NCBI GenBank assembly: GCA_934271195.1
Contig: CAKQRB010000021.1
Coordinates: 21-64,020, forward strand
DNA: 64,000 nucleotides
Origin: an uncultured Alphaproteobacteria bacterium
Lineage (GTDB): Bacteria > Pseudomonadota > Alphaproteobacteria > RF32 > CAG-239
Reading direction: 5' to 3'
Position 1 is the first letter of the stretch; every line of letters begins with the position of its first letter. Shown in pieces: positions 2,421 to 46,482 of this stretch. The translations under genes and the position numbers were made by a program. Under the pieces are notes generated by a model. That model saw nothing but the letters and a program-made list of their open reading frames with translations. It ran no database searches and was not told the origin of the DNA.

Positions 2421-3044
2421 TTAAGCTTTTGACAAAAGATTGAGCGCCTTGTCTCTTTCCTGCGGATAGCGCTTGCGGATAATGTTGTCCCTTTCTTTTG
2501 GAGCCATTTTTGTCAGCGCTGAAACATAAGCAATGCGGGCATCATACAACCGGTTGATAATCTCTCGGTCAGAACAGGATGAAACGTCTGTTCCGAGTGC
2601 TTTTTGGACAATCAGAGCTGCCCGCCCGTGCTGAACGGCCATGGAATACAGCACGTCTTTCAGGACAGGGTGCCTTTCTTCCGGATTAAGCCCTTTTATC
2701 ATGCCGATTTTTTTGAACAGCGGCCGGAGTTTCTGCTCAATAATAAAATCGTGCTGAGCCTGTACAAAATCTTCCTCTCTGGCAAGAGTTTGCCAAGCGT
2801 GCTCAAATGCTGCCGTTTTGTTGACGGCGCCGGTATGTCCGCCGGCATTTTGTAAAGCAGAGGCGTAAGTGATATAGCGGTCACAAGAGCTGAGAAATTT
2901 CAAAAAGTCTTTCATTGTGCCTTGCTTGGTTTCAATTTGATAAGTTCCGTAACTGTAACCGCCGGTCGTGTCATAACCGATTGCCGCCGGATTGCCGTTT
3001 GACTCAAAAGAAGAACTCAATGTGCCGAGTTTGTAAGATGTCAT
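2421..3044 (-). CDS. Lysozyme-like superfamily protein (putative peptidoglycan hydrolase/toxin), no signal peptide
   Basis: N-terminal FESNGNPAAIGYDTTGGYSYGTYQI resembles the catalytic Glu plus D..GG.S.G / G.YQ pattern of SLT/GH24/GH108-type lysozymes. Start moved to ATG 3044, which has the GGAGAAAA RBS of the conserved 49-bp module. Confidence 0.5.
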   Translation of the reverse strand: MTSYKLGTLSSSFESNGNPAAIGYDTTGGYSYGTYQIETKQGTMKDFLKFLSSCDRYITYASALQNAGGHTGAVNKTAAFEHAWQTLAREEDFVQAQHDFIIEQKLRPLFKKIGMIKGLNPEERHPVLKDVLYSMAVQHGRAALIVQKALGTDVSSCSDREIINRLYDARIAYVSALTKMAPKERDNIIRKRYPQERDKALNLLSKA

Positions 3045-3046
3045 GA

Positions 3047-3095
3047 TTTTCTCCATAAAAAAAGGCTCCTGCCGTTAAGCAGAAGCCGGATTAAA
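3047..3095 (-). repeat. 49-bp leader module, copy A: terminator-like hairpin + U7 + SD
   Basis: Identical at all 49 positions to 4620-4668. The minus strand reads TTTAATCCGGCTTCTGCTTAACGGCAGGAGCCTTTTTTTATGGAGAAAA (9-bp stem, U7, then GGAG). Confidence 0.85.
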
Positions 3096-3120
3096 AAATG
3101 CCCCGAATAAGATCCGGGGC
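3093..3120 (-). terminator. Intrinsic terminator immediately upstream of module A
   Basis: Minus strand reads GCCCCG-GATCTTATT-CGGGGC followed by ATTTTTT. Confidence 0.6.
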
Positions 3121-3217
3121 GGTTATCTTGTTATTTATAAACAGATTATAATTACATTGTCTTGTAAAATAATACATTATTATAAGCTAAAGCGCTCATA
3201 TACAGGGAGGAATGTAT

Positions 3218-3541
3218 TTATCCAAGCATAAAAATTTTAGGGTAAAAATACAATATGATGATATAATTTAATACAGCGATAACAAAACAAGAAATTAAAA
3301 AAGCCTTTTGGCTCATTTTATGATCAATAAAAAATATCGAACATGCAGCAAGACTATAGACATAAAACCACCATGGAAAAAAATGAGGAAAAAAAATGAA
3401 GTGTATTAATGTTATATAGCTGATAATGGCAATGCCGGTTATAAAATACATTGTAATATTTACAAAAAACATGCCTAAGAATAACGAAATATCCTTAATA
3501 TAACCCCATATTGTATCAGGTGGCTGCTTTATAATTTTCAT
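3218..3541 (-). CDS. Small polytopic membrane protein (3-4 TM), putative immunity protein
   Basis: Start moved to ATG 3541 (GGAGAAAGTA RBS). Strongly hydrophobic F/I/Y-rich sequence. Lies in the AT-rich patch. Confidence 0.6.
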   Translation of the reverse strand: MKIIKQPPDTIWGYIKDISLFLGMFFVNITMYFITGIAIISYITLIHFIFFPHFFPWWFYVYSLAACSIFFIDHKMSQKAFLISCFVIAVLNYIIILYFYPKIFMLG

Positions 3542-3606
3542 TACTTTCTCCTCAGTTACTATGCGTAATAATGCAATAATACCAAATGACAATTAAAGTT
3601 TGTTTT

Positions 3607-3918
3607 TTAATAACAAATATTAAATCCGTCGCAAAGAGTTTTTGTAATCTCTCCCGGATAGCAAAAGACTAGAATCCAATGATTGATAAAAGCATAGATA
3701 CTTAACATCAAATACCAAGTCTTATTTATGCCATTTTTGTTTCTGTATATAACCAATCCCCCAATAGTAGTGGCAAAATATATAAACAGAACAGAGAAAA
3801 ACGATTGGGAAAAAATGATTAAACGGGATAATATATAAAATTCTAATAATAAATAGCATTGCAATAGGGCAATGGATAGCCCCCATATTTCAGAACAAAC
3901 TTTTTTTATCCGAGACAT
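3607..3918 (-). CDS. Small polytopic membrane protein (3-4 TM), putative immunity protein
   Basis: Start moved to ATG 3918 (GGGAAGAAATATT RBS). Size and architecture match the neighbour at 3218..3541. Confidence 0.6.
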   Translation of the reverse strand: MSRIKKVCSEIWGLSIALLQCYLLLEFYILSRLIIFSQSFFSVLFIYFATTIGGLVIYRNKNGINKTWYLMLSIYAFINHWILVFCYPGEITKTLCDGFNICY

Positions 3919-3952
3919 AATATTTCTTCCCAAACTTTTTATTTATAAAAAG

Positions 3953-3980
3953 ATTATAATTGTATTGTTATATAAATCAA
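3953..3980 (-). promoter_or_regulatory. Sigma70-like promoter for the two membrane-protein genes
   Basis: Minus strand reads TTGATT-16 nt-TATAAT. The -35 box overlaps the stop codon of the 3977..4615 gene. Confidence 0.5.
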
Positions 3981-4615
3981 TAGTTATAATCACTGTCACC
4001 GTCTTGCCAGAAAGAAGATAGCGCATTATTAAGAGATGAGTCTGCAATGCCTTCGCCAATTTCTTTTAGTAATTTTCTTGCATTTGCAGGAATATGAGGG
4101 TTTGAAGCTAACGTTGCGACACCTTTAATTTGAGGTAGTTTTTGGATGCCCCAATTAGCCGCCCCGGCACTGGCAGCGCCAATGACAGTGCTTTTCAGAT
4201 GAGAAGATATATCTTTTTCTCCTGTTCCCAAACCGGCGACGGTTCCAAGGCCTATAGGTTCCAATCTTCCTAAAGCGGCTATTCGTGCCGGACTGTAATA
4301 TGCTCCGATGAATTCGGATAAAGCCGTTGATATCGGATAATTATCATTGCACCAGTTTAAATGATTGCGATTCAAGTCTCGTGCTGTTTGGTAATTTTGG
4401 CTGACAGACGGAAACGGATTTTTCAGTTCACTGACATCATCCAACGCTTTACCGGTTGCATATCCTGCACCGACTATTTCGTCTCCCCAGCCCAAAGTAT
4501 ATCCTTGGTATCCGCCGTCGGCAATGCAGCCGATTCTGTTGAAAGCTTTATTTTTTAGAGTATTTTCCTGCGAATAGTAATTTCCTCTAAGTAATTTTCC
4601 GATAGATTTTGACAT
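3977..4615 (-). CDS. Hypothetical Gly-zipper protein (putative membrane-active toxin), no signal peptide
   Basis: 212-aa ORF with the GGAGAAAACATT RBS of the conserved module. Contains G/A-rich hydrophobic stretches (IGLGTVAGLGTGEKD, VIGAASAGAANWG). Confidence 0.6.
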   Translation of the reverse strand: MSKSIGKLLRGNYYSQENTLKNKAFNRIGCIADGGYQGYTLGWGDEIVGAGYATGKALDDVSELKNPFPSVSQNYQTARDLNRNHLNWCNDNYPISTALSEFIGAYYSPARIAALGRLEPIGLGTVAGLGTGEKDISSHLKSTVIGAASAGAANWGIQKLPQIKGVATLASNPHIPANARKLLKEIGEGIADSSLNNALSSFWQDGDSDYNY

Positions 4616-4619
4616 AATG

Positions 4620-4668
4620 TTTTCTCCATAAAAAAAGGCTCCTGCCGTTAAGCAGAAGCCGGATTAAA
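4620..4668 (-). repeat. 49-bp leader module, copy B
   Basis: Identical to 3047-3095. Confidence 0.85.
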
Positions 4669-4690
4669 TAAAAAAACGGTTACTGAAAAT

Positions 4691-4726
4691 AAAAACAAAA
4701 AAAAGCCGATGCAACCACATCGGCTT
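4691..4726 (-). terminator. Intrinsic terminator upstream of module B
   Basis: Minus strand reads AAGCCGATG-TGGTTG-CATCGGCTT followed by TTTTTTGTTTTTATTTT. Confidence 0.65.
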
Positions 4727-4813
4727 ACGGTGCACACACTTACACACCATAATAAAACTAATAACGTACAGTGACACTCATGTCAATATGGCTGTCAGAT
4801 ATATGTGGATAAA

Positions 4814-4853: not shown

Positions 4854-4866
4854 TTTTGTTTAATCC

Positions 4867-5355
4867 TTATCGGTATTTCAATAATGTATACCCGTAATGC
4901 TTAATCTTTTTTTCTGCTTCTTCAAAACTGCATAATCCCAGATTAACCGCTTGCAAAACAGCCGCTTCGTCAACCAGCTTTAACTTCAGCATTACCGGCA
5001 GAACCTTGTCTTCCATTTTTGGATACCATTTCAGCATTGTGGCAAAAGCTCGCAGGGGTTTATCCGGCTTGGTCAGTGAGGCGCATTCCCAGTCAATGAC
5101 CATCTCCCGATAATCCTTTTCGTTCTGGCAATGCTTTCCTTCATATTCGGTATGATGCCGCGAGTGCCGGCGGTGAATCCCCTGAACCTCTTCCACGTCC
5201 AGCCACGGAAGCCAGTATAAAAACAGCTTGTCCAGATCATGCCTCAGGCCTTTGAACGTGTTATGTCCCAAAACCTTTTTTTCAATTTTCAAAAAAGCCA
5301 GCTTGTGCCGCCAGGTGTACAAAAAATAATCAACGCGAATTGCTATAGAACTCAT
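4867..5355 (-). CDS. Hypothetical protein, possibly HD-like (DUF5662-like)
   Basis: 162-aa ORF with His/Asp-rich motifs (RHDLDK, HRRHSRHH). The family assignment is weak. Confidence 0.45.
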   Translation of the reverse strand: MSSIAIRVDYFLYTWRHKLAFLKIEKKVLGHNTFKGLRHDLDKLFLYWLPWLDVEEVQGIHRRHSRHHTEYEGKHCQNEKDYREMVIDWECASLTKPDKPLRAFATMLKWYPKMEDKVLPVMLKLKLVDEAAVLQAVNLGLCSFEEAEKKIKHYGYTLLKYR

Positions 5356-7313: not shown

Positions 7314-8390
7314 ATGCGCGAGAAGTTAAAATTTGTTTGGGAGGCAGTTTGCTATGCTTTTTCAGGTCTCTCCAAAGCGTTGAAACCTGTTATGATGCGG
7401 CTTTGTGATCTGCGGGAAAAACTGTCCGCCGCTTACTATAAGAAAACTGAACTGCATTTAACCCTGCATGGCCGATTGCGCGAACAGATTATATCTGGGA
7501 AGCTGCTCCTTGTTGCGCGTATTTTTCTGATCTTTTTTATGATTGCGCAGGCCTTTGCCGTCTATTACGTCATTCCGCGTATGAATGTTCTGATCGCCAT
7601 GCTGATTTTATATCTCCCGCTGTCTATCTTGGTTATTCGCGGCTATCGTCTGGCTTTGTTGCTGGTGATTCCTATTTCTTTTTATATTATGGTACGCTAT
7701 CAGCTGCAAAATTACGTGACCATAACGGTCGGCTCGTCCTGTACCCTGCTTTTGCTGCTGCTGGGATATTTTAACTTTAAGTTGGAAAACACCAAAAGCC
7801 TGTTGCAGCGACAGGGGCTTCTGCCCAAACCGGAAGGGACATTCTGGCGCGATTTTGCATTTTCTTTGCTGTTGTTCGGCATTTTGAACGTCTATACCAC
7901 ATTATATAACAATATGCAGGAAAAAGCCCATAAAGAGGCTCTCGAACAGGCGCATAAAAAACTGATGGAAGCTGCCGGCTATGTTGTCTATCACCAGCGG
8001 GCATACAGCGATTATTGCAAAAAAGAAGGTTGGCAGGTCAAGCTTTATCCACAGGCTTTCAATGACAAGTTTGCCGCCGAAGTCAAAAATATAGAAATCA
8101 AATTGTCCGAGCAGCAAACCAGCCTGAAGAAAATTTATGACAATGCCCGCGGCACCAATTGGTCAAAAACTTTGCGTCAGGTAGTCGAAGAAATTAATAA
8201 CATTCGTGAAGACGCTATCATCCGCCGCTTTGCCAAAGAACTCAAACTCCCTGTGGCCGAAGTCAGGATGACCTCGGAAATGGACGATACCATGACCATG
8301 AAAGAGGCCTGCAAACTGTTTGATGAAGAACACGACAAATATCTTGCCGCCGATCGTCCGGAATTCGGGGTTATTTCTATGTTTAAGTAA
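7314..8390 (+). CDS. Hypothetical membrane protein with a soluble C-terminal domain
   Basis: 358-aa ORF with a GGAG RBS. Several N-terminal TM helices. No family recognised. Confidence 0.6.
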   Translation: MREKLKFVWEAVCYAFSGLSKALKPVMMRLCDLREKLSAAYYKKTELHLTLHGRLREQIISGKLLLVARIFLIFFMIAQAFAVYYVIPRMNVLIAMLILYLPLSILVIRGYRLALLLVIPISFYIMVRYQLQNYVTITVGSSCTLLLLLLGYFNFKLENTKSLLQRQGLLPKPEGTFWRDFAFSLLLFGILNVYTTLYNNMQEKAHKEALEQAHKKLMEAAGYVVYHQRAYSDYCKKEGWQVKLYPQAFNDKFAAEVKNIEIKLSEQQTSLKKIYDNARGTNWSKTLRQVVEEINNIREDAIIRRFAKELKLPVAEVRMTSEMDDTMTMKEACKLFDEEHDKYLAADRPEFGVISMFK

Positions 8391-16367: not shown

Positions 16368-17906
16368 TTACTGCCACTTTTGACAATAAAAAGCGGCTTC
16401 TTCAGAATTATTGCGGTTAAAAAACTCTCTTAAGGCATACATCTCAAGCGGATAACGCTCAATATAAGCCATAACGATGTCATGGCTGCCTTTTTGAGCC
16501 AAAAACTTTTCCGTTTCCGGATCCAACCGCCCGTCCAGACTGCATGCAAAAGCATAAGCATCTCCTTTTTCAATAAGGCCTTTTTGAAAATCAAGATAAT
16601 CATAACTGTCCTCTCTTTTATAAGCGGCAATCAACTCTTCGTCATTTTTCCGGCCGGATAAATTAAATTCTCTGATAAAAGTATCAGTATGAGGCCACTC
16701 CAGAAAACTGATGTAATGCATAATCAGATTATGGTCGCCTTTTTCCAACAGCTTACGTACGCCGTCACTCTTCAGGCAATGCTTCATGGAAATATAGTCC
16801 ATAATTTCCTGTGTCGAGCGCTTCTCAACTAAAAGTTCCTCAAAAAGGTAAGAAAAATCATGCAGAGCAATGTAAGCATAGAAATTTTCCGAACTTCCGG
16901 ATTCCAACAGCTTTTTCTGCCGTTCTTCCGATAAATCTTTCTGAGAAATCCAGAACTTAAAGTTTTCTGGATTGCCGTCGTCCAACAATTCAGCCTCTAG
17001 TTCCGAACACAAACCATGCTTCAAAAGGTGCAAAGAAATTTCTTCCCGATTGCCTCTTGCCCATAATTTTTTTTGAACTTCGGGAACAAAACCGTGACGT
17101 TCGATGTAATACATCAACTCGTCATGATTCCCTCTGCTGACAACCACGTCTTGTGCCGGCCCGCCAAATCCCATATAAGACAGATAAGCGCGTATTTCTT
17201 CGGTGTTATTGCATTGTGCAATAATAACCTGAACGTCATCGGGAAGAGCTTTGTGCTGCTGTCCGTAATGGTGAATGATGAACAAAAGGTCATCATGATT
17301 CCGGTTATGCTTAAAATATTCCGAAACCAGCTCCGGACACAGACCATGCTTGCGAAAATGCAAGAAAATTTCATCTCGGTTGCCGCGTTTCCATAGCTTT
17401 TTCTGAACCTCAGGCACAAAACCGTGACGCTCAATGTAATACATCAACTCGTCATGGTCGCCTCTGTCAACAATAATATGTTGCGCCGGCTCGCCAAATC
17501 CCAGATAAGCTAAATAAGTATGCATTTCTTGCGCGTTGTTTCTTTGCGCAATAATAACCTGAACGTCATCGGACAAAACAGGGACATATGAATAGTTGTC
17601 ATGCTTTCGAATGTTTTGATACATTTGACCGTATTTTTGAATCATGAGCAAAATTTCATCATGCTTTTGCCTTTTTGCAATTTGCAACGCTTCAGCAGGT
17701 CTTAGCATATTATCGACAAACTTGTCATAATAAAAAATCCCGTCATAGTCTTCTGCATAAACAGTTTTAAAATAGCACTCAAGCTTGTTCAGCTTCTCCA
17801 TAATCTCAATGTGGGTTTCACACTCTTTCCGCGCTTCTTCTAAAGAAACATTCGGATCCTTTACTTTTTCAGTCTTCATAATATACATAATTTTTATTGT
17901 TTTCAT
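16368..17906 (-). CDS. Helical-repeat protein of unknown family
   Basis: 512 aa built from roughly 35-40 aa units (G[DNS]H[DN]-LM-YI...). It carries a 330-bp (110-aa) internal tandem duplication. Confidence 0.7.
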   Translation of the reverse strand: MKTIKIMYIMKTEKVKDPNVSLEEARKECETHIEIMEKLNKLECYFKTVYAEDYDGIFYYDKFVDNMLRPAEALQIAKRQKHDEILLMIQKYGQMYQNIRKHDNYSYVPVLSDDVQVIIAQRNNAQEMHTYLAYLGFGEPAQHIIVDRGDHDELMYYIERHGFVPEVQKKLWKRGNRDEIFLHFRKHGLCPELVSEYFKHNRNHDDLLFIIHHYGQQHKALPDDVQVIIAQCNNTEEIRAYLSYMGFGGPAQDVVVSRGNHDELMYYIERHGFVPEVQKKLWARGNREEISLHLLKHGLCSELEAELLDDGNPENFKFWISQKDLSEERQKKLLESGSSENFYAYIALHDFSYLFEELLVEKRSTQEIMDYISMKHCLKSDGVRKLLEKGDHNLIMHYISFLEWPHTDTFIREFNLSGRKNDEELIAAYKREDSYDYLDFQKGLIEKGDAYAFACSLDGRLDPETEKFLAQKGSHDIVMAYIERYPLEMYALREFFNRNNSEEAAFYCQKWQ

Positions 17907-23974: not shown

Positions 23975-24012
23975 TTATATTGTTCGCAGTTAAATTATGT
24001 AAGACAAATAAA

Positions 24013-25677
24013 ATGCTTGTACATCTGTTTTTATTGTTGTTCGTTCTGGGCGGAACTGCTTTTTTTCTGCCTAAAAACAAGTTTTCCCGTTTCTTTTCTG
24101 CATTGCTCTTTCTCTCGGCAGGAATCGGTGTTTGGAATCTTTTTCAGGCCTGTCATTCAGCGCATACAGAACCGTTTGTTTTCCATTGGATTCAATACAA
24201 AACCCTGCATATAGACATCAGTTTATCTTCCAATTTGCGCAATTTTATTCAAATTATGCCTTTTGGCGTTGTGTTGTTGTTTTCGCTTTTTAGCAATATT
24301 TTTTCTCGGCAGGAAACAAGACGTCTGCGTCTGGGCGGCCTTATGTGCATCAATCTGGCATTTTTGTTGCTTCTGATATGTGCCAACAATCTGATTGTCT
24401 TAATGATTAGTGCTTTTCTGATCGGCATCACAACGCTTTATATTATAAATGATTACGATTCGAAAAAAACTTATATCTTTTATAATCTGGTTTCTGACAT
24501 GGCCTTGTTTACGGCTTGTGCCATAATTTACAGCCGCTTTCATCAGGTCGAGTTGTCTGTATTGTTACGTTACGCCCATGAAGGCGAACACGTTTCGCTG
24601 GTTGCGTTACTGATTTTGCTGAGTTTGATGATAAAAAACGGTTTGTTTTTGTTTCAGAACCAATTGCTGAGTTTTCGGGATATCAATTTTAATCGGATGA
24701 TATTTTTGAGCTTTTGCAGTTTGCCGGTTGTCGGAATGTTGATTTATGAAAAAGCCCTGCCGTTGCTGTCTTCTTTTGAATATACCGGCATCATAATCGG
24801 AACGGCTGCAACCCTTTCCGTGCTCTATGCGCTGGGCGGAACTTTGATTTATGACGATATCAAAGAAAAAACACTGTGCTTTAATATGCTGTTTTGGGCG
24901 TTGCTATATGGCTTATCTTTGTCAATGCCGCAATTCTCTTTTGTCTCCTGCTATCCTCTGTTGTTGCTGATGCTGGCTCTGAATGGGCTGATTCATGCTT
25001 TGTCAGCCTCCGCTTCTGATGAGATTTATGCTTCTAAAATGGGCGGCTTTGCCAAAATGCTGTGGCCGCAGCTTGTTTTTTTCATCATTTGGTACGCCGT
25101 TTTTTCTCAAAATGTTTTTGCTTTAGCCCAACCGGTACCGATTCTGAACTTCGAGTTGGAAATTTTTGCTTTTACCATAGCTTTGGCTTTGGCACATTTG
25201 TTGCGTCAGGTGTTCTTCGGACCAACTCGGGCAGATGGCATTGTCTATGCGCGTTTACGGACTTTGCCTTATGCCGATTGCTGGCTTCCGGCAGTTTTGA
25301 TTTGTGGCTTCTATGCCTTGCCGCTGTCAAAAATTTCGGTCGCGGGGATAACGGCGCCGGCCGTATTTGTCCTGCTGCTGGTCATACATCCTCTGCGCGG
25401 CTTGTCACGTTATTACGCCGATGAAGAATTGCAGTTGTCAGAATTCTTCAAACGCTTTTATGAGCTGCTGATTTTAACGCCGATAACTGTTTTGGGACGA
25501 ATTTTGTGGTTGACCATAGATTTTGTAATTATAGAACGCACAATTATCAATTCTCTCTCGGATATGATAAAGATTTTAATCCGAATCTCTCAAAAAATCC
25601 ACCAGCCGCAAATGCTTAATTATATCCTGCTTACGCTTTGCGGACTGGGTATCATCTTTTTGTATGCGGGGAGATAA
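24013..25677 (+). CDS. Highly divergent NuoL-like antiporter-type subunit
   Basis: Polytopic protein with a NuoL-type C-terminal lateral-helix region (WLTIDFVIIERTIINSLSD...). The canonical WE (TM5) and KSAQ.P..WL.DAM..PTPVSAL motifs are degenerate. ATG 24013 is preferred over TTG 23980. Confidence 0.55.
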   Translation: MLVHLFLLLFVLGGTAFFLPKNKFSRFFSALLFLSAGIGVWNLFQACHSAHTEPFVFHWIQYKTLHIDISLSSNLRNFIQIMPFGVVLLFSLFSNIFSRQETRRLRLGGLMCINLAFLLLLICANNLIVLMISAFLIGITTLYIINDYDSKKTYIFYNLVSDMALFTACAIIYSRFHQVELSVLLRYAHEGEHVSLVALLILLSLMIKNGLFLFQNQLLSFRDINFNRMIFLSFCSLPVVGMLIYEKALPLLSSFEYTGIIIGTAATLSVLYALGGTLIYDDIKEKTLCFNMLFWALLYGLSLSMPQFSFVSCYPLLLLMLALNGLIHALSASASDEIYASKMGGFAKMLWPQLVFFIIWYAVFSQNVFALAQPVPILNFELEIFAFTIALALAHLLRQVFFGPTRADGIVYARLRTLPYADCWLPAVLICGFYALPLSKISVAGITAPAVFVLLLVIHPLRGLSRYYADEELQLSEFFKRFYELLILTPITVLGRILWLTIDFVIIERTIINSLSDMIKILIRISQKIHQPQMLNYILLTLCGLGIIFLYAGR

Positions 25678-37625: not shown

Positions 37626-38702
37626 CTACGAACAACTGTAACTGTGATTAAACTCGCCATCACAAAGAGTTGAAGGGCATCTGCTAGAGCTCTCGTGGTC
37701 ATCCGCCGCCCAATCACACCAATCCTGCTGTTTCCAACACGCTTCTGAAATGTTATAATTTCCTCCGGTATAGTCGCAACTCAAAAAACACCATCCGCCT
37801 GACCAAGTTGTAGAAATACTTGTAAGAGAATGGCAACTTGATCCGCCACCGGAACTACCACCGCCGGAATAACATCCAGAGCCACCGCAGCGCGTATCAC
37901 ATGATTGGATAGATCCGTCAGTACAGCAGTCACCATGACATGTTGAGTGAACGGAACACCAGTCTGAAGAGTAGCGATTACAACATGAAACGGAGTTATA
38001 GCAGGTTTTGTTGCCACAACCGTTTTTCTTGGAGGACGAACATCCGGTAGGGTCAGAGGAATAAGGATAACCGGACGGGCAGTTCATGTTGCAGGTGTAA
38101 TAACAGGTATATTCGCAGCCGTCGGTGCCGTTCGTTCCGTAGTTCTTAGAAGTAAGAGAAGTATAATCGGGACAACCTGACGGTTTACAACAGGTTCCGT
38201 AAGAATTATCATAAGAGCATCGTCCGGAGTTCTTTTTAAGCTTCTGACCGGAAGGACAAGAGTTAGTATAACCTGTATCCCGACAAGCGCGGGGATTGTC
38301 AGTCTTGCATTGTTTGTAAAGAGAACCGTCACTCGGACAAGGAGTGTCAACATATTGAGGAATGGAGCATGAGGTCGTGTTATATCCGTTTTGTTTACAC
38401 CACTTCGCGGCGTCGCATTTAAGATAATGGTCGTCACGAGAACATTTTCCGGCATCGGCATAATATTGCGGACACTTGCCGTCAGCATAGTAGGTGAAGC
38501 CGTTGCTTTCACAAAAAGCGGAATCTTCATTCATATTCATGTTTCCGCCGCCACCGGCAAGATCATCATCAGCACAGTCTGGCAGGAAGCAAACGCCACA
38601 GTAAGCGGAGGTTGGGAGGAGAACCGAGAAAGCTGCGGCAACAGCAAAAACTGACACCGCAGAGTTTAGTTTCATGTGTAGCATAGTGTTAGTATTCTTC
38701 AT
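37626..38702 (-). CDS. Secreted cysteine-rich protein (about 41 Cys in 358 aa)
   Basis: GGGAGGAAGCCG RBS. Signal peptide ...AVSVFAVAAAFSVLLPTSA. G/S/Y/N/C-rich mature part with recurring G[YF]T..C and CPSG motifs. Confidence 0.75.
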   Translation of the reverse strand: MKNTNTMLHMKLNSAVSVFAVAAAFSVLLPTSAYCGVCFLPDCADDDLAGGGGNMNMNEDSAFCESNGFTYYADGKCPQYYADAGKCSRDDHYLKCDAAKWCKQNGYNTTSCSIPQYVDTPCPSDGSLYKQCKTDNPRACRDTGYTNSCPSGQKLKKNSGRCSYDNSYGTCCKPSGCPDYTSLTSKNYGTNGTDGCEYTCYYTCNMNCPSGYPYSSDPTGCSSSKKNGCGNKTCYNSVSCCNRYSSDWCSVHSTCHGDCCTDGSIQSCDTRCGGSGCYSGGGSSGGGSSCHSLTSISTTWSGGWCFLSCDYTGGNYNISEACWKQQDWCDWAADDHESSSRCPSTLCDGEFNHSYSCS

Positions 38703-42613: not shown

Positions 42614-43585
42614 ATGATGAAAAAACAGAAGATATTGGTTTCCGCAATGGTCGCGTTAATGTTCTCGACAGCCGGCGTATCTGCTCAGGATGTGTATGTG
42701 GACTTGTCGGTTTTAGACAGTCTCATGACCGATTCTTCTGCTCCTTCCGCACCGCTTTTTCCGGTTGTTTCTCCGGATAGTCATTCGGTAAAAAAAGACG
42801 TCAAAAAAGCGCTTCATAAAGCTAAAAAACAAGTCAAAAAAGCTGTCCGCGCCGAAAAAGACGTTGTCAGTATTCCGCAAAAATCAGAAATCAAGGTCGA
42901 AAACCTGAAGCCGGTGTCCAACGACCGACCGGACTTGAGTTCGGAACACGCGCAGGTAAAAGATCAGCCAGTCAATAAGGCAGCTGCAGCCGAAGTTTTG
43001 GGCAATGTTGAAAAGGCGGCTTCTGCGCCGGAGACTGAGACCGCTTTGCCTCAGACACCGTCCAAAGCCAAAGCCGATTCGGATGTTTCTTCCAAAAATA
43101 ACGAGCTGACGGCAATCACTCCGGTTGAAATGCCGGAAAATACCGGAAACCAGACCATGCAGCCTGAACCGCAAAAGCCGGAAGCCGAAATTCAATTGCT
43201 GGTTTCTGTAGAACCTGCGGAATCAAAGACATTGCTGGTGTCACCAGCGGAGCAGACGTCAGTTCCGGCTGAACATAAGATCAGCGCCGCGGATAATCAT
43301 ATTGTCTTTGCCGAAGATGTTTCGGAATTAACGGAGGACCACAAAAAACAAATTGATGCGGTTGTTGCCGGATTTGAAGATCCGAAAAACAACAAGATTG
43401 CCATATTCTCTTACAATTATGACAACGGCGAAGATGTTTTTCGCAAAAAGCGTATGAGCCTGAGTCGTGCCGTGGAAATCCGCTCCTATTTGCTGGGCAA
43501 AGGCTATAAAAATTTCTCAATTAAGGTCATAAACGTTAATGAGGCTGATAAAAATAATCTGGTAATGGTTATCGAATTAAAATAA
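42614..43585 (+). CDS. Secreted protein with a low-complexity linker and an OmpA/MotB-like C-terminal domain
   Basis: Signal peptide MMKKQKILVSAMVALMFSTAGVSA. C-terminal ...LSRAVEIRSYLLGKGY. Confidence 0.5.
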   Translation: MMKKQKILVSAMVALMFSTAGVSAQDVYVDLSVLDSLMTDSSAPSAPLFPVVSPDSHSVKKDVKKALHKAKKQVKKAVRAEKDVVSIPQKSEIKVENLKPVSNDRPDLSSEHAQVKDQPVNKAAAAEVLGNVEKAASAPETETALPQTPSKAKADSDVSSKNNELTAITPVEMPENTGNQTMQPEPQKPEAEIQLLVSVEPAESKTLLVSPAEQTSVPAEHKISAADNHIVFAEDVSELTEDHKKQIDAVVAGFEDPKNNKIAIFSYNYDNGEDVFRKKRMSLSRAVEIRSYLLGKGYKNFSIKVINVNEADKNNLVMVIELK

Positions 43586-43954: not shown

Positions 43955-43989
43955 CCTGCATTTGGTAATTTGAATGCAGGTTTTTTTTA
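43955..43989 (+). terminator. Intrinsic terminator of rpmE
   Basis: CCTGCATT-loop-AATGCAGG followed by T9. Confidence 0.8.
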
Positions 43990-44009
43990 TGCAGGGACAA
44001 AGAACTGCC

Positions 44010-45590
44010 ATGGTCAAAATAGTACATTATGAAGTATATACCGATTCCGGAGACGGCTGGAAACTGGAAGAACGGTTTTCCAACGAGCAGCGGTACGAAG
44101 CCGTAAATCTGGCCAAAGAACAGGAACAAAACCATAAAAAAGTCAAAATCATCAAAGAATACTTTGATGTTCAGGACAATTCCTATCAGGAAACGGTTGA
44201 ATATGTCAGCGGCTTTTCCAACCGGAAAAATGTCAAGGGCGGCGCTTATTCCGAAATTTCCGGCGGTAGTGCAGGCAATAACAGTTCCGAAGGCGAAAAA
44301 AGTACAGGCGCCGCAAGGCGTGACAATGTTATGACCGCTATCATCAAGCTGCTGGCAATAATTATCTTATGTCTGGCTTTGGCCAATTTTCTGGTTACTT
44401 TGTTGACCCCGATTGTTGAAAGTTTTGCGCCGGAAGAAATAACCAACCCGATTTTGTTTGTCCTGTTTTTCTGCCTTTTTCTGGGAATTGCGCTGCCGCT
44501 GCTGCTGAAGAGAGTACCTTGGCATGTCTTTATTCCCCGTTCACCGCATAAGAAAAATCTGGATGAAAGAAAGTTTTATAACCGAGCCGATATCATTGCC
44601 AAATGTTATAATATGAATGATGAGTTTGATCCTCAGCTCGCGCCGGTCTATCCTGAAGCCCCGCTGGAGTTCAAACGCTATATTCTCAATTTTCTGAGTG
44701 ATGTGGTTTCTAACATCAATTCTGCCTCGGCCTTGCAGGACAGTTTTTCTCGTCTCGGCGTTAAACTGGTAATCTTCGGCGGTTGTTTTGAACTGGCGCG
44801 CTATAGCGGCCTTTCCCTGACTGAAGCCAATTCGCTGCTGTACGAGGCCTTTAAGATATTGGACGGCGATAAAACCGATTTAGAAGATTTCTACGAGGCC
44901 AAAAAGACCTATAAAGACAACCGTTATGCCGTATTCTTAACCGGTGTCGGTGCTTATCTGATGGGACAGGTAATTTGGGAAAAACCGCTTGACATCAATA
45001 TGTTAAAGCTGTCATTTGACAAATGGGAAGAACAAAACAGCCAGCTGGACAAGGTGAAAAGCCCAGATGAAGTCATTGAAAAAGAAGTGTCTTTTTCCTG
45101 TCTGGTCAACATTAAAAATTCAGTCGAATTTATTGATACGGCAATCCCCGGACTGGATCAGCAGAAAAATGACGTCAAAGCCGGCGTGCGCAATATAATC
45201 CGGAATCTGCTTGAAAAATATAAATCCATGAGTATTTCGGAAGAAGGTGAGATAACAAGGCTGACTTTCAACAAACTGAATCGTGCGGTTAAATTTGCCG
45301 TCGATTTTCTGAATGACGTTGCAATCTATGCCGACGATATTGCTGACGAGAACATGCTGTTTCATTGTTGCTGTACGATTATCGAGGACATTCGGAGTCA
45401 GGGAGACAGCATACAGAATTACATTGCCGATTTGTTTGACCAGACCTATGACTATGAAATCGTCACGACCGAAGCCATTAACAAATTTCGGGACGAACTT
45501 GATACAACCCGCTATAATTTTGACTTTTTGGGCGAAAAAACGCTTTCGCGCTCCCAAAAAACGGAATCTATTTATAAAATATTGTATTAA
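44010..45590 (+). CDS. Hypothetical protein with two central TM helices
   Basis: ORF 43974..45590. The earlier ATGs lie inside the rpmE terminator, so ATG 44010 is preferred. Confidence 0.55.
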   Translation: MVKIVHYEVYTDSGDGWKLEERFSNEQRYEAVNLAKEQEQNHKKVKIIKEYFDVQDNSYQETVEYVSGFSNRKNVKGGAYSEISGGSAGNNSSEGEKSTGAARRDNVMTAIIKLLAIIILCLALANFLVTLLTPIVESFAPEEITNPILFVLFFCLFLGIALPLLLKRVPWHVFIPRSPHKKNLDERKFYNRADIIAKCYNMNDEFDPQLAPVYPEAPLEFKRYILNFLSDVVSNINSASALQDSFSRLGVKLVIFGGCFELARYSGLSLTEANSLLYEAFKILDGDKTDLEDFYEAKKTYKDNRYAVFLTGVGAYLMGQVIWEKPLDINMLKLSFDKWEEQNSQLDKVKSPDEVIEKEVSFSCLVNIKNSVEFIDTAIPGLDQQKNDVKAGVRNIIRNLLEKYKSMSISEEGEITRLTFNKLNRAVKFAVDFLNDVAIYADDIADENMLFHCCCTIIEDIRSQGDSIQNYIADLFDQTYDYEIVTTEAINKFRDELDTTRYNFDFLGEKTLSRSQKTESIYKILY

Positions 45591-45669: not shown

Positions 45670-46482
45670 ATGCAGATACCGTCGAGTTCATCAAATGTCA
45701 AGGATGGCATTGCTTATTGGGAGAAAGTCGCTGCGGATGTTAACGACGTTGACGAGAAGTTTTCCAATGCCCGTGATTTAGGTTATCTGCGTTTGAATTA
45801 TGCCCGCGTGACCTCAATCGCCCGCCTTTCCGAATATGACAAAGAAGATAATTACAAAATTCAGGTGCAGTCCAACGGCAAATTTTCGCTGGCCCTGCGC
45901 AATACCGAAGGCTCTGACGACAAGGTGCTGGATCTTTCCAAATATGACGAGACGCTTGACAAACTGAAACAACAGTTTGATCCAGAAGGCTATGCCAAGG
46001 AGCAGGAAGAAAAGAAAAAAGCCAAAGAAGATTTGCTGGCAACCATGGCTCCCGGAATGCAGGTGCAGGTTTATATGGTGAAAAACGGCAAAGAAGTTTT
46101 GGTTGCCGACAGTACGGCAGAAAAAGGCGATGGCCTGAGAACCAATTTTGATAATATGCTTTCCGGCGAATACAAGGCCAAAAAAGGCACCTATTATGTA
46201 AAAGTCAGCCGTGATGATACCGTTGATAAAGACGCCGAACTTCCTTATGCGTTGCAAATGAGAGTCGGTTCGTCGCACAAACATGAATATAGCTTTACCG
46301 AAACCGTTTCTTCCGATACCAAAAACAAAGAATATACCCGTATTCCGTCCACAACGTCGGCAAGCGGAACTTTGTCAAGTGTCAATGCCCTGCAAATACA
46401 GGCTTCACGCTATCAGGCAACGGCTCAGATGCTGCAAATCGGATATTTGAATGTGGCTAATATTTATAACAGCCGCAAATAA
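45670..46482 (+). CDS. Hypothetical protein
   Basis: 270-aa ORF with a GAGGAG RBS. No family recognised. Confidence 0.55.
   Translation: MQIPSSSSNVKDGIAYWEKVAADVNDVDEKFSNARDLGYLRLNYARVTSIARLSEYDKEDNYKIQVQSNGKFSLALRNTEGSDDKVLDLSKYDETLDKLKQQFDPEGYAKEQEEKKKAKEDLLATMAPGMQVQVYMVKNGKEVLVADSTAEKGDGLRTNFDNMLSGEYKAKKGTYYVKVSRDDTVDKDAELPYALQMRVGSSHKHEYSFTETVSSDTKNKEYTRIPSTTSASGTLSSVNALQIQASRYQATAQMLQIGYLNVANIYNSRK

Follow-up and report, generated by a model that had tools for sequence, protein, structure and literature searches.

We analysed a 64-kb stretch of DNA (the window, meaning this whole stretch) from an uncultured Alphaproteobacteria bacterium (assembly GCA_934271195.1, contig CAKQRB010000021.1, positions 21 to 64,020), which carries three consecutive minus-strand open reading frames (ORFs). 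The first encodes a protein of 212 amino acids (aa; P0001, 4615..3977), and the second and third, here named immA and immB, encode small membrane proteins (3933..3607, 108 aa from a TTG codon, and 3592..3218, 124 aa from a TTG codon). Sequence comparisons make it very probable that the 212-aa protein is derived from the module found at the N-terminus of podovirus internal-virion (ejectosome) proteins. With less assurance, we favour the view that the three genes form a polymorphic membrane-targeting toxin-immunity system built on a cut-down, domesticated version of this phage module, because the C-terminus of the 212-aa protein and immA swap together, the cassette moves as a block, and membrane partners are conserved downstream of homologous genes. 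An earlier note on this DNA had proposed a toxin with independently expressed membrane immunity proteins, and had likened the arrangement to the colicins. The paired swapping, block exchange and conserved partners favour the first part of that proposal, whereas the colicin-like nature has to be given up for descent from the podovirus module.

Phage ancestry of the 212-aa protein

No family in Pfam, NCBIfam or PADLOC was matched by P0001, immA or immB. The earlier note had likewise recognised no family for the three proteins, which stands for Pfam and NCBIfam; profile comparisons, however, linked the 212-aa protein to the phage family phrog_5880. Searching 1.84 billion representatives with a profile of P0001 and its 57%-identical relative P0002 recovered 93 relatives (15 at E <= 1e-10), many of them 500-880 aa long and matching near the N-terminus. 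phrog_5880, annotated as of unknown function, was matched by 47 of the 50 relatives scanned, with a best E of 4e-63. Partner domains in the scanned relatives included Phage_Mu_F, P22 gp7/DNA ejection protein and minor head/DNA pilot protein domains, and further partners were glucosaminidase, endolysins and a peptidoglycan-binding domain.

The best phrog_5880 member, P0048, led to hypothetical proteins of ~670 aa in podoviruses of ~40 kb, namely Sulfitobacter phages pCB2047-A and -C, Microcystis phage MJing1 and Rhizobium phage RHph_Y25. The phrog_5880 gene of pCB2047-C and MJing1 directly follows that of a ~600-640-aa virion cell-wall hydrolase and lies in the virion module; in pCB2047-C this gene, SUBG_00011, sits between those of a 643-aa virion 'endolysin' and a tail fibre. 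Internal virion (ejectosome) genes occupy this position in the podovirus group concerned (PMC10386132). The family profile aligned to SUBG_00011 with an hhalign probability of 95.4% (E 2e-8), and hmmsearch returned an E of 1.7e-12 for a match spanning the helical core and the Gly-rich motif. Direct tblastn searches of 50,697 phage genomes with P0001, P0041 and P0045 gave nothing, and only P0048 reached annotated phages. The sequences of the diverse alignment A2 differed too strongly for viral contigs to be scanned with it, and a sequence search of the PDB found nothing.

AlphaFold2 modelling with 91 sequences predicted a helical bundle for residues 21-110 (pLDDT 92-97); with two sequences only, the pLDDT was 37. 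The Gly-rich feature described in the earlier note is present as a GxxxGxxxG run (G124, G128 and G132). It corresponds, however, to the family-wide YG.G..EG motif, and is thus a conserved family feature and not one private to a toxin. P0001 gave no hit at E <= 1 to the Pfam glycine-zipper families (Gly-zipper_Omp, YMGG, 2TM), and one of the 50 relatives showed a marginal match to Gly-zipper_Omp (E 9.7e-4).

The podovirus proteins and the 212-aa protein have in common a homologous helical core and Gly-rich motif (QG.TLG..DE..G ... Y...RD..R ... YG.G..EG), and a peptidoglycan hydrolase gene is a neighbour in the phages and in the window alike. By function, the phrog_5880 proteins would be analogues of P22 gp7/gp20/gp16 and T7 gp14-16. 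Unlike these ~670-aa proteins, the window protein represents only the first ~200 residues and is encoded in a housekeeping chromosomal context. It also has a polymorphic C-terminus and is followed by small membrane genes, whereas the phage phrog_5880 genes have no such followers.

Variation and exchange of the cassette

Close relatives of P0001 are extremely rare. A search of 5.8 billion proteins recovered only P0001 itself and P0002, and a scan of one genome per species gave two loci, both in metagenome-assembled genomes of uncultured gut Alphaproteobacteria (mouse gut MGBC133411, locus L005; water-deer rectum RGIG9125, locus L004). None was found in JGI metagenomes or IMG/VR. P0002, which is encoded at L001 and L004, has the first nine residues in common with P0001 and an essentially identical core, but carries a 50-residue linker insertion and is only ~25% identical from residue ~105 on, that is, over the C-terminal ~105 aa. 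At the DNA level, the breakpoints of this swap lie at window positions 4326 and 3607. A different C-terminus at L001 and L004 replaces a block consisting of the window C-terminus, the upstream region of immA (a repeat named D2, below) and immA itself, and is followed directly by the immB orthologue.

The two membrane genes behave differently in this comparison. immA was found only alongside the window-type C-terminus, in the window and at L005, and is absent from L004, which has the other C-terminus, except for a 47-nt remnant of its 3' end; no homologue of immA was detected among 5.8 billion proteins. The sole membrane gene after the P0002-type gene at L001 and L004 is the immB orthologue, and immB in the window is therefore read as an orphan. 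From this pattern, the window-type C-terminus would have immA as its cognate immunity gene, and immB probably represents an orphan immunity gene for the sister P0002-type toxin. The earlier note had described two similar membrane proteins of ~105 aa; the products do have 3-4 hydrophobic helices apiece, but they are not equivalent, since one tracks the C-terminus and the other belongs with the sister variant. No homology was detected when immA was compared with immB (BLASTP E 0.56; hhalign E 0.14).

Remnants of rearrangement were seen at both types of locus. D2 is a 48-nt repeat with copies, 81% identical, after the 212-aa gene (3982..3935) and after immB (3174..3127; D2'), while the 47-nt immA remnant of L004 (95.7% identical) lies directly after immB. 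Read together, D2' in the window and the remnant in L004 appear as complementary scars of an ancestral tandem immunity array, which would explain the duplication of D2.

We compared the window with L005 by synonymous divergence (dS) of each gene and by sliding identity along the locus. The flanking genes had dS values of 0.33-0.44, against 0.12 for the toxin-like gene, 0.07 for immA and 0.03 for immB. Identity was 95-99% over 4566..3218 and 84-93% outside this interval. The flanks group L005 nearer to L004, though L005 bears the window-type cassette. High identity within the cassette against diverged flanks indicates that the three genes move between lineages as one unit. The ratio of nonsynonymous to synonymous divergence (dN/dS) was 0.28-0.41 for the toxin-like gene, 0.32 for immA and 0.42-0.49 for immB, as compared with 0.12-0.15 for a neighbouring lysozyme gene and 0.04-0.07 for the LOG and ABC transporter genes nearby. 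All three cassette genes are functional and under purifying selection, but change more quickly than housekeeping genes do.

More distant short relatives (218-387 aa, about 25% identical) are encoded in the chromosomes of other Gram-negative bacteria, where they adjoin ribosomal-protein, glycolysis, lpx, mla, mraZ and clpB genes and not prophages. At all of the non-phage loci examined (L006, L008, L010, L011, L014, which has two modules, L016, L018 and L020), one to four small membrane proteins are encoded downstream of the homologue in the same orientation; they fall into three or more families between which no similarity could be detected. A 96-aa protein with three transmembrane (TM) helices recurs among them: L006 has one such gene and a truncated copy, L008 two 96-aa genes together with two other small membrane genes, L010 one 96-aa 3-TM gene and a gene for an 89-aa single-TM protein, and L011 three tandem 96-aa paralogues. 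The two tandem modules of L014 encode putative toxins of 266 aa and 289 aa that are alike over ~95 N-terminal residues and differ beyond them, and their membrane partners differ as well (128 aa and 96 aa). Orphan fragments were seen as well. At L016 a complete module precedes an isolated C-terminal piece of a toxin (E 2.7e-13), which is paired with a 96-aa gene of its own, and at L020 a further toxin fragment (E 6e-6) comes after two membrane genes. Polymorphic toxin-immunity systems are recognised genetically by just such diverse, fast-evolving and tandemly amplified downstream partners and by orphan modules.

At L018, the distant homologue P0006 is followed by a 108-aa protein that aligned with immB over its full length (31% identity, BLASTP E 0.008), with IKD and VLN-YII-LYF-P motifs in common. 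This is the only credible link of its kind; homology of immA or immB to the 96-aa family was considered and is unsupported. As a separate observation, a gene for an XRE/HTH_3-type regulator of 191-239 aa precedes the 289-aa-type toxin gene at L008 (9220-9938), L011 (9221-9940) and L014 (7560-8278). It is followed by a 67-aa ORF at L008 and L014, which is apparently fused to the regulator at L011. These genes are candidate dedicated regulators in the AT-rich relatives and are absent from the window.

The toxin-immunity reading and its alternatives

Criteria of the Zhang/Aravind type for polymorphic toxins call for a conserved N-terminal part with an abruptly divergent C-terminus, which was seen in the P0001/P0002 and L014 pairs, and for a small downstream gene co-varying with the C-terminus, together with orphan modules, which were also observed. 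In the mechanism that we propose, the 212-aa protein, after release or delivery, would reach the inner membrane of a competing cell on its periplasmic side and insert into it through the Gly-zipper and the amphipathic C-terminal half, and the membrane barrier would collapse. Insertion is modelled by analogy on the parent ejection proteins, which are thought to build a DNA conduit. The immA protein, with three TM helices in the inner membrane of the producer, would neutralise the cognate C-terminus, and that of immB would shield the cell from the variant toxin of sister lineages; each of the two genes could have a promoter of its own, at the promoter-like sites 3980..3953 and 3592..3565. The toxin and lysozyme genes would probably be held nearly silent and switched on together, because each lies behind a terminator-like hairpin and then the hairpin of a common leader repeat (D1, below).

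A number of observations weigh against this interpretation. P0001 alone matched phrog_5880 weakly (E 3e-4, residues 28-153, spanning only positions ~54-164 of the 661 in the profile), and the link depends on profiles. The Gly-rich and C-terminal parts of the AlphaFold2 model were of low confidence. Foldseek, proposed as a check in the earlier note, gave no PDB matches for the P0001 model and only weak ones in BFVD (E 0.1-0.6), to long phage proteins including a virion structural protein of Mx8. The 212-aa protein contains no segment of signal-peptide or TM hydrophobicity (Kyte-Doolittle, 19-residue window), so that the earlier statement that it lacks a signal peptide was correct. Co-variation of immA with the C-terminus was seen with two cassette types only, and immA has no relatives. 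A recognisable trafficking domain or linkage to secretion is a further element of the Zhang/Aravind-type criteria; Pfam and NCBIfam gave no domain for the 212-aa protein, and the earlier suggestion that secretion-system genes be sought near relatives yielded none in the window or nearby at the related loci examined. The rest of the 64-kb window consists of housekeeping genes, with no secretion system, phage or gene-transfer-agent cluster, and no type VI secretion system gene either, though the neighbouring lysozyme carries a VgrG3-like C-terminal domain. The 585-aa ABC exporter next to the island is without a peptidase domain or membrane-fusion partner.

We compared the cassette with several known systems. 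The pore-forming colicins A and E1 are accompanied by the small polytopic immunity proteins Cai and Cei. Ionophore toxins of contact-dependent growth inhibition (CDI) systems (CdiA-CT/CdiI, E. coli EC93 type) are similarly paired with small polytopic immunity proteins of the inner membrane (PMC11630599). The logic of both is the same as that proposed here, with a helical membrane toxin bearing a glycine-zipper helix, polymorphic membrane immunity encoded downstream and diversification as cognate pairs. However, there is no sequence or fold similarity, CdiA/CdiB, domains for receptor binding or translocation and a VENN motif are all lacking here, and the window protein is free-standing at 212 aa.

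The Caulobacter proteins CdzC and CdzD, contact-dependent bacteriocins with a glycine zipper, are 84-86 aa long and belong to a type with small toxins (5-10 kDa); they bear secretion signals at the N-terminus and have a dedicated type I secretion system, cdzAB, encoded next to them (PMC5380434). They resemble the present case in the alphaproteobacterial host, the Gly-zipper toxin, the small 3-TM immunity protein (CdzI) and an island-like distribution (PMC5380434), but the window protein is 212 aa long, has a phage-derived folded helical core and lacks a dedicated transporter. MuF polymorphic toxins of temperate phages also use a head-internal, ejected phage protein as a chassis with immunity encoded downstream, and some long relatives in the P0001 family are fused to MuF domains. 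MuF toxins, however, stay in prophages and have enzymatic C-terminal toxins (PMC12226406), whereas the window cassette is chromosomal, without a MuF domain, and has a variable part of membrane type. Judged by these comparisons, the cassette does not belong to the colicin, CDI or Cdz groups, and the MuF toxins are a parallel in concept. It is rather likely to represent an unrecognised toxin family of unusual phage origin.

Homology of the 212-aa protein to an ejection-protein module would also be expected of an anti-phage module, in which the membrane proteins act as superinfection-exclusion factors against a podovirus ejectosome and the 212-aa fragment is a decoy, dominant-negative subunit or sensor. 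Phage exclusion proteins such as P22 SieA, T4 Imm and HK97 gp15 are typically small inner-membrane proteins with their own promoters; moreover, the loci lie in variable regions, one of them beside GmrSD and other defence-type genes, and an arms race with phages would likewise yield polymorphism. We nevertheless consider this explanation unlikely. No component matches a PADLOC family, a decoy and an exclusion protein have no reason to co-vary, and orphan C-terminal fragments with their own membrane gene, along with paired swapping, are hallmarks of toxin-immunity systems that are unexpected for a decoy. Holins and lysis functions fit the related loci poorly, since these retain membrane genes without a lysozyme, and tandem near-identical copies and orphan toxin fragments are unlike holins. 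In the window, a terminator (3120..3100) lies between immB and the lysozyme gene, and immA and immB match no holin family in Pfam or PHROGs and do not end in the charged tail that holins usually have. A lysis or release cassette (holin-endolysin or type-10-secretion-like), with the membrane proteins as holin and antiholin for the lysozyme and the 212-aa protein as cargo or accessory, thus appears quite improbable, even though small membrane genes are followed here by a signal-less lysozyme, the D1 leader on both the 212-aa and lysozyme genes suggests co-regulation, and the two proteins both come from phage modules.

An intracellular addiction or abortive-infection pair, in which the 212-aa protein harms the membrane of its own cell once the labile or limiting membrane 'antitoxin' is lost, would be export-free. 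This agrees with the failure to find an export signal in the sequence or secretion genes in the 64-kb window, with the tight linkage of the partner genes and with the behaviour of the cassette as a mobile unit. We give this possibility only a slim chance, as an orphan immunity gene (immB) and arrays of paralogues guard against the toxins of others and would be needless in cis. Furthermore, the periplasmic side is the usual point of attack for pore formers resembling ejection proteins or colicins (PMC11630599), which also speaks against such a pair. A decaying prophage remnant with no present function is highly improbable: two genes do come from phage virion modules and lie in a patch of deviant composition, but the ORFs are intact and occupy the same chromosomal site amid housekeeping genes in at least three lineages, dN/dS values are 0.12-0.49, the leaders are conserved, and there are no other phage genes in the 64 kb.

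If the toxin-immunity reading is correct, the toxin family would be new to domain databases, with members in little-studied Alphaproteobacteria of the gut and in further Gram-negative bacteria. It would also reveal a new path from phage part to weapon, in which membrane-penetrating ejection machinery becomes a polymorphic toxin. Phage tails are already known as the precursors of tailocins. The 212-aa protein would be a minimal version of an ejectosome with natural inhibitors, offering a handle on membrane entry by ejectosome proteins, and alignment A3 provides a profile usable to detect such cassettes in metagenomes. A bolder extension, which we put forward as speculative and rather doubtful, is that the cassette is a new class of bacteriocin derived from a domesticated ejectosome. 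A free-standing module would then penetrate the competitor's inner membrane without dedicated secretion, toxin and phage-derived lysozyme would be co-regulated in this lineage by way of the terminator-containing leader that both genes carry, and the immunity proteins would stem from phage superinfection-exclusion proteins. Toxin and lysozyme might leave by lysis of a sub-population or, alternatively, by loading into phage-like or gene-transfer-agent-like particles. Full-text literature searching found no paper on ejectosome-derived toxins.

Organisation of the locus and neighbouring genes

The features of the locus are listed in Table 1. The GC content across about 3000-4050 is 0.27-0.31, compared with 0.44 for the 64-kb window, in line with the earlier description of three minus-strand genes in an AT-rich patch. 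The trough overlies the two membrane genes, and part of the AT-richness is thus due to F/I/L/Y-rich coding. The likely start codons of immA and immB are ATG 3918 and ATG 3541, respectively, the latter after a GAGGAG ribosome-binding site.

Table 1. Coordinates of genes, repeats and predicted signals around the cassette.
Feature	Position	Strand	Description
DUF5662-like gene	4867..5355	-	162 aa; PF18907, 27.9 bits vs cut-off 27; upstream of the 212-aa gene
Weak promoter-like site GTGTCA-17-TATTAT	4749..4777	-	9/12 in consensus scan, not above chance alone; upstream of the leader of the toxin-like gene
Terminator-like hairpin + T-run	4703..4726	-	In the leader of the 212-aa gene; present in the minimum-free-energy fold of 4750..4610 (z -4.4)
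D1	4620..4671	-	10-bp hairpin (4660..4637), U7 run, GGAG ribosome-binding site; abuts the ATG of the 212-aa gene
212-aa toxin-like protein	3977..4615	-	Helical core ~21-110, Gly-zipper region 121-156, then variable C-terminus
D2	3935..3982	-	Region upstream of immA; holds TTGATT-16-TATAAT (3980..3953), which runs across the stop of the 212-aa gene
immA	3607..3918	-	103 aa, 3 TM helices; ORF listed as 108 aa from TTG 3933
Promoter-like site TTGTCA-16-TATTAC	3565..3592	-	Upstream of immB; putative, from sequence inspection
immB	3218..3541	-	107 aa, 3-4 TM helices; ORF listed as 124 aa from TTG 3592
D2'	3127..3174	-	Second copy of the immA upstream region, located after immB
Intrinsic-terminator-like hairpin	3100..3120	-	Closes the tox-immA-immB unit, ahead of D1'
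D1'	3047..3098	-	Same hairpin, U-run and ribosome-binding site as D1; leader of the lysozyme gene
Lysozyme/chitosanase-like protein	2421..3044	-	207 aa, VgrG3 C-terminal type; PF21277, E 3e-30

The promoter-like sequence TTGATT-16-TATAAT, which the earlier note had placed across the end of the 212-aa gene, is indeed the top site of the region, with 10 of 12 consensus positions; the TGA stop codon falls within its -35 hexamer, and the sequence is unchanged in sister genome L005. Promoter-like sites as a whole are not enriched in the region (13 seen vs 9.7 +/- 3.1 expected). The position equivalent to the immB promoter-like site reads TTGTTA-16-TATTAT in L004.

D1 is a 52-nt direct repeat whose copies (4671..4620 and 3098..3047, minus strand) are 98% identical. 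There are only these two copies in the 64-kb window, where none is expected by chance. The repeat is near-invariant before both the 212-aa and lysozyme genes in three lineages, and its few changes preserve the stem through G-U pairs. The hairpin has a predicted energy of -17.7 kcal/mol (z -4.3), and both leaders fold far better than shuffled sequence (z -4.4 and -5.2). Each copy is preceded by a further terminator-like hairpin (4726..4703 and 3120..3100), giving two hairpins in tandem. No Rfam family was assigned to the leaders, every hit being far under the gathering score. This organisation suggests co-regulation of the two genes through read-through or antitermination.

The island is flanked by tgt-LOG on one side and the 585-aa ABC exporter on the other in the window, L004 and L005. 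We considered the adjacent transporter as a dedicated exporter and rejected this role as unsupported, as it is highly conserved (dN/dS 0.04-0.06), without a peptidase domain and missing from the other homologue loci. The 207-aa lysozyme has no signal peptide and also matches internal segments of the giant phage proteins phrog_26249 and phrog_34863; it stands alone, with no obvious immunity gene of its own in the 64-kb window. In L004 (7329-7817, minus strand) and also in L021 (1333-1545), an extra signal-anchored protein of 150-162 aa is encoded on the opposite strand between immB and the lysozyme leader. Its N-terminal part differs between samples, and a role as inhibitor of the lysozyme or as immunity protein is conceivable; the 162-aa gene of L004, examined as a lysozyme inhibitor, matched no Pfam or PHROG family. 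The DUF5662-like gene is nearly wholly deleted (window 4858-5285) in the metagenome contigs L002 and L003, which are otherwise 97% identical to the window. The deletion occurred at A-rich microhomology, and loss of the gene in both contigs indicates that it is a dispensable accessory for the cassette.

Elsewhere in the window, the earlier note had pointed out that a GLGTG motif of the 212-aa protein recurs in a giant protein. The motif is present in this 1367-aa protein (31202-35305, minus strand), but the match is due to chance (best BLASTP E 2.9), and the protein was rejected as a relative. It has no Pfam family and a long repeat-like middle; its C-terminus has an alanine/lysine-rich region and, after this, a hydrophobic stretch rich in Gly. 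The protein may act at the cell surface or in interaction with a host. The first 300 nucleotides of the window, upstream of tgt, are strongly purine-rich on the plus strand (GC skew 0.46, AT skew 0.52) and gave no alignment to sister genome L005. ORFs of 270-565 aa without a Pfam family lie at 16368-17906, 23980-25677, 37626-38702, 42614-43585, 43974-45590, 45670-46482 and 7314-8390, the last of which encodes a 358-aa membrane protein that is conserved beside the ABC exporter in all three genomes.

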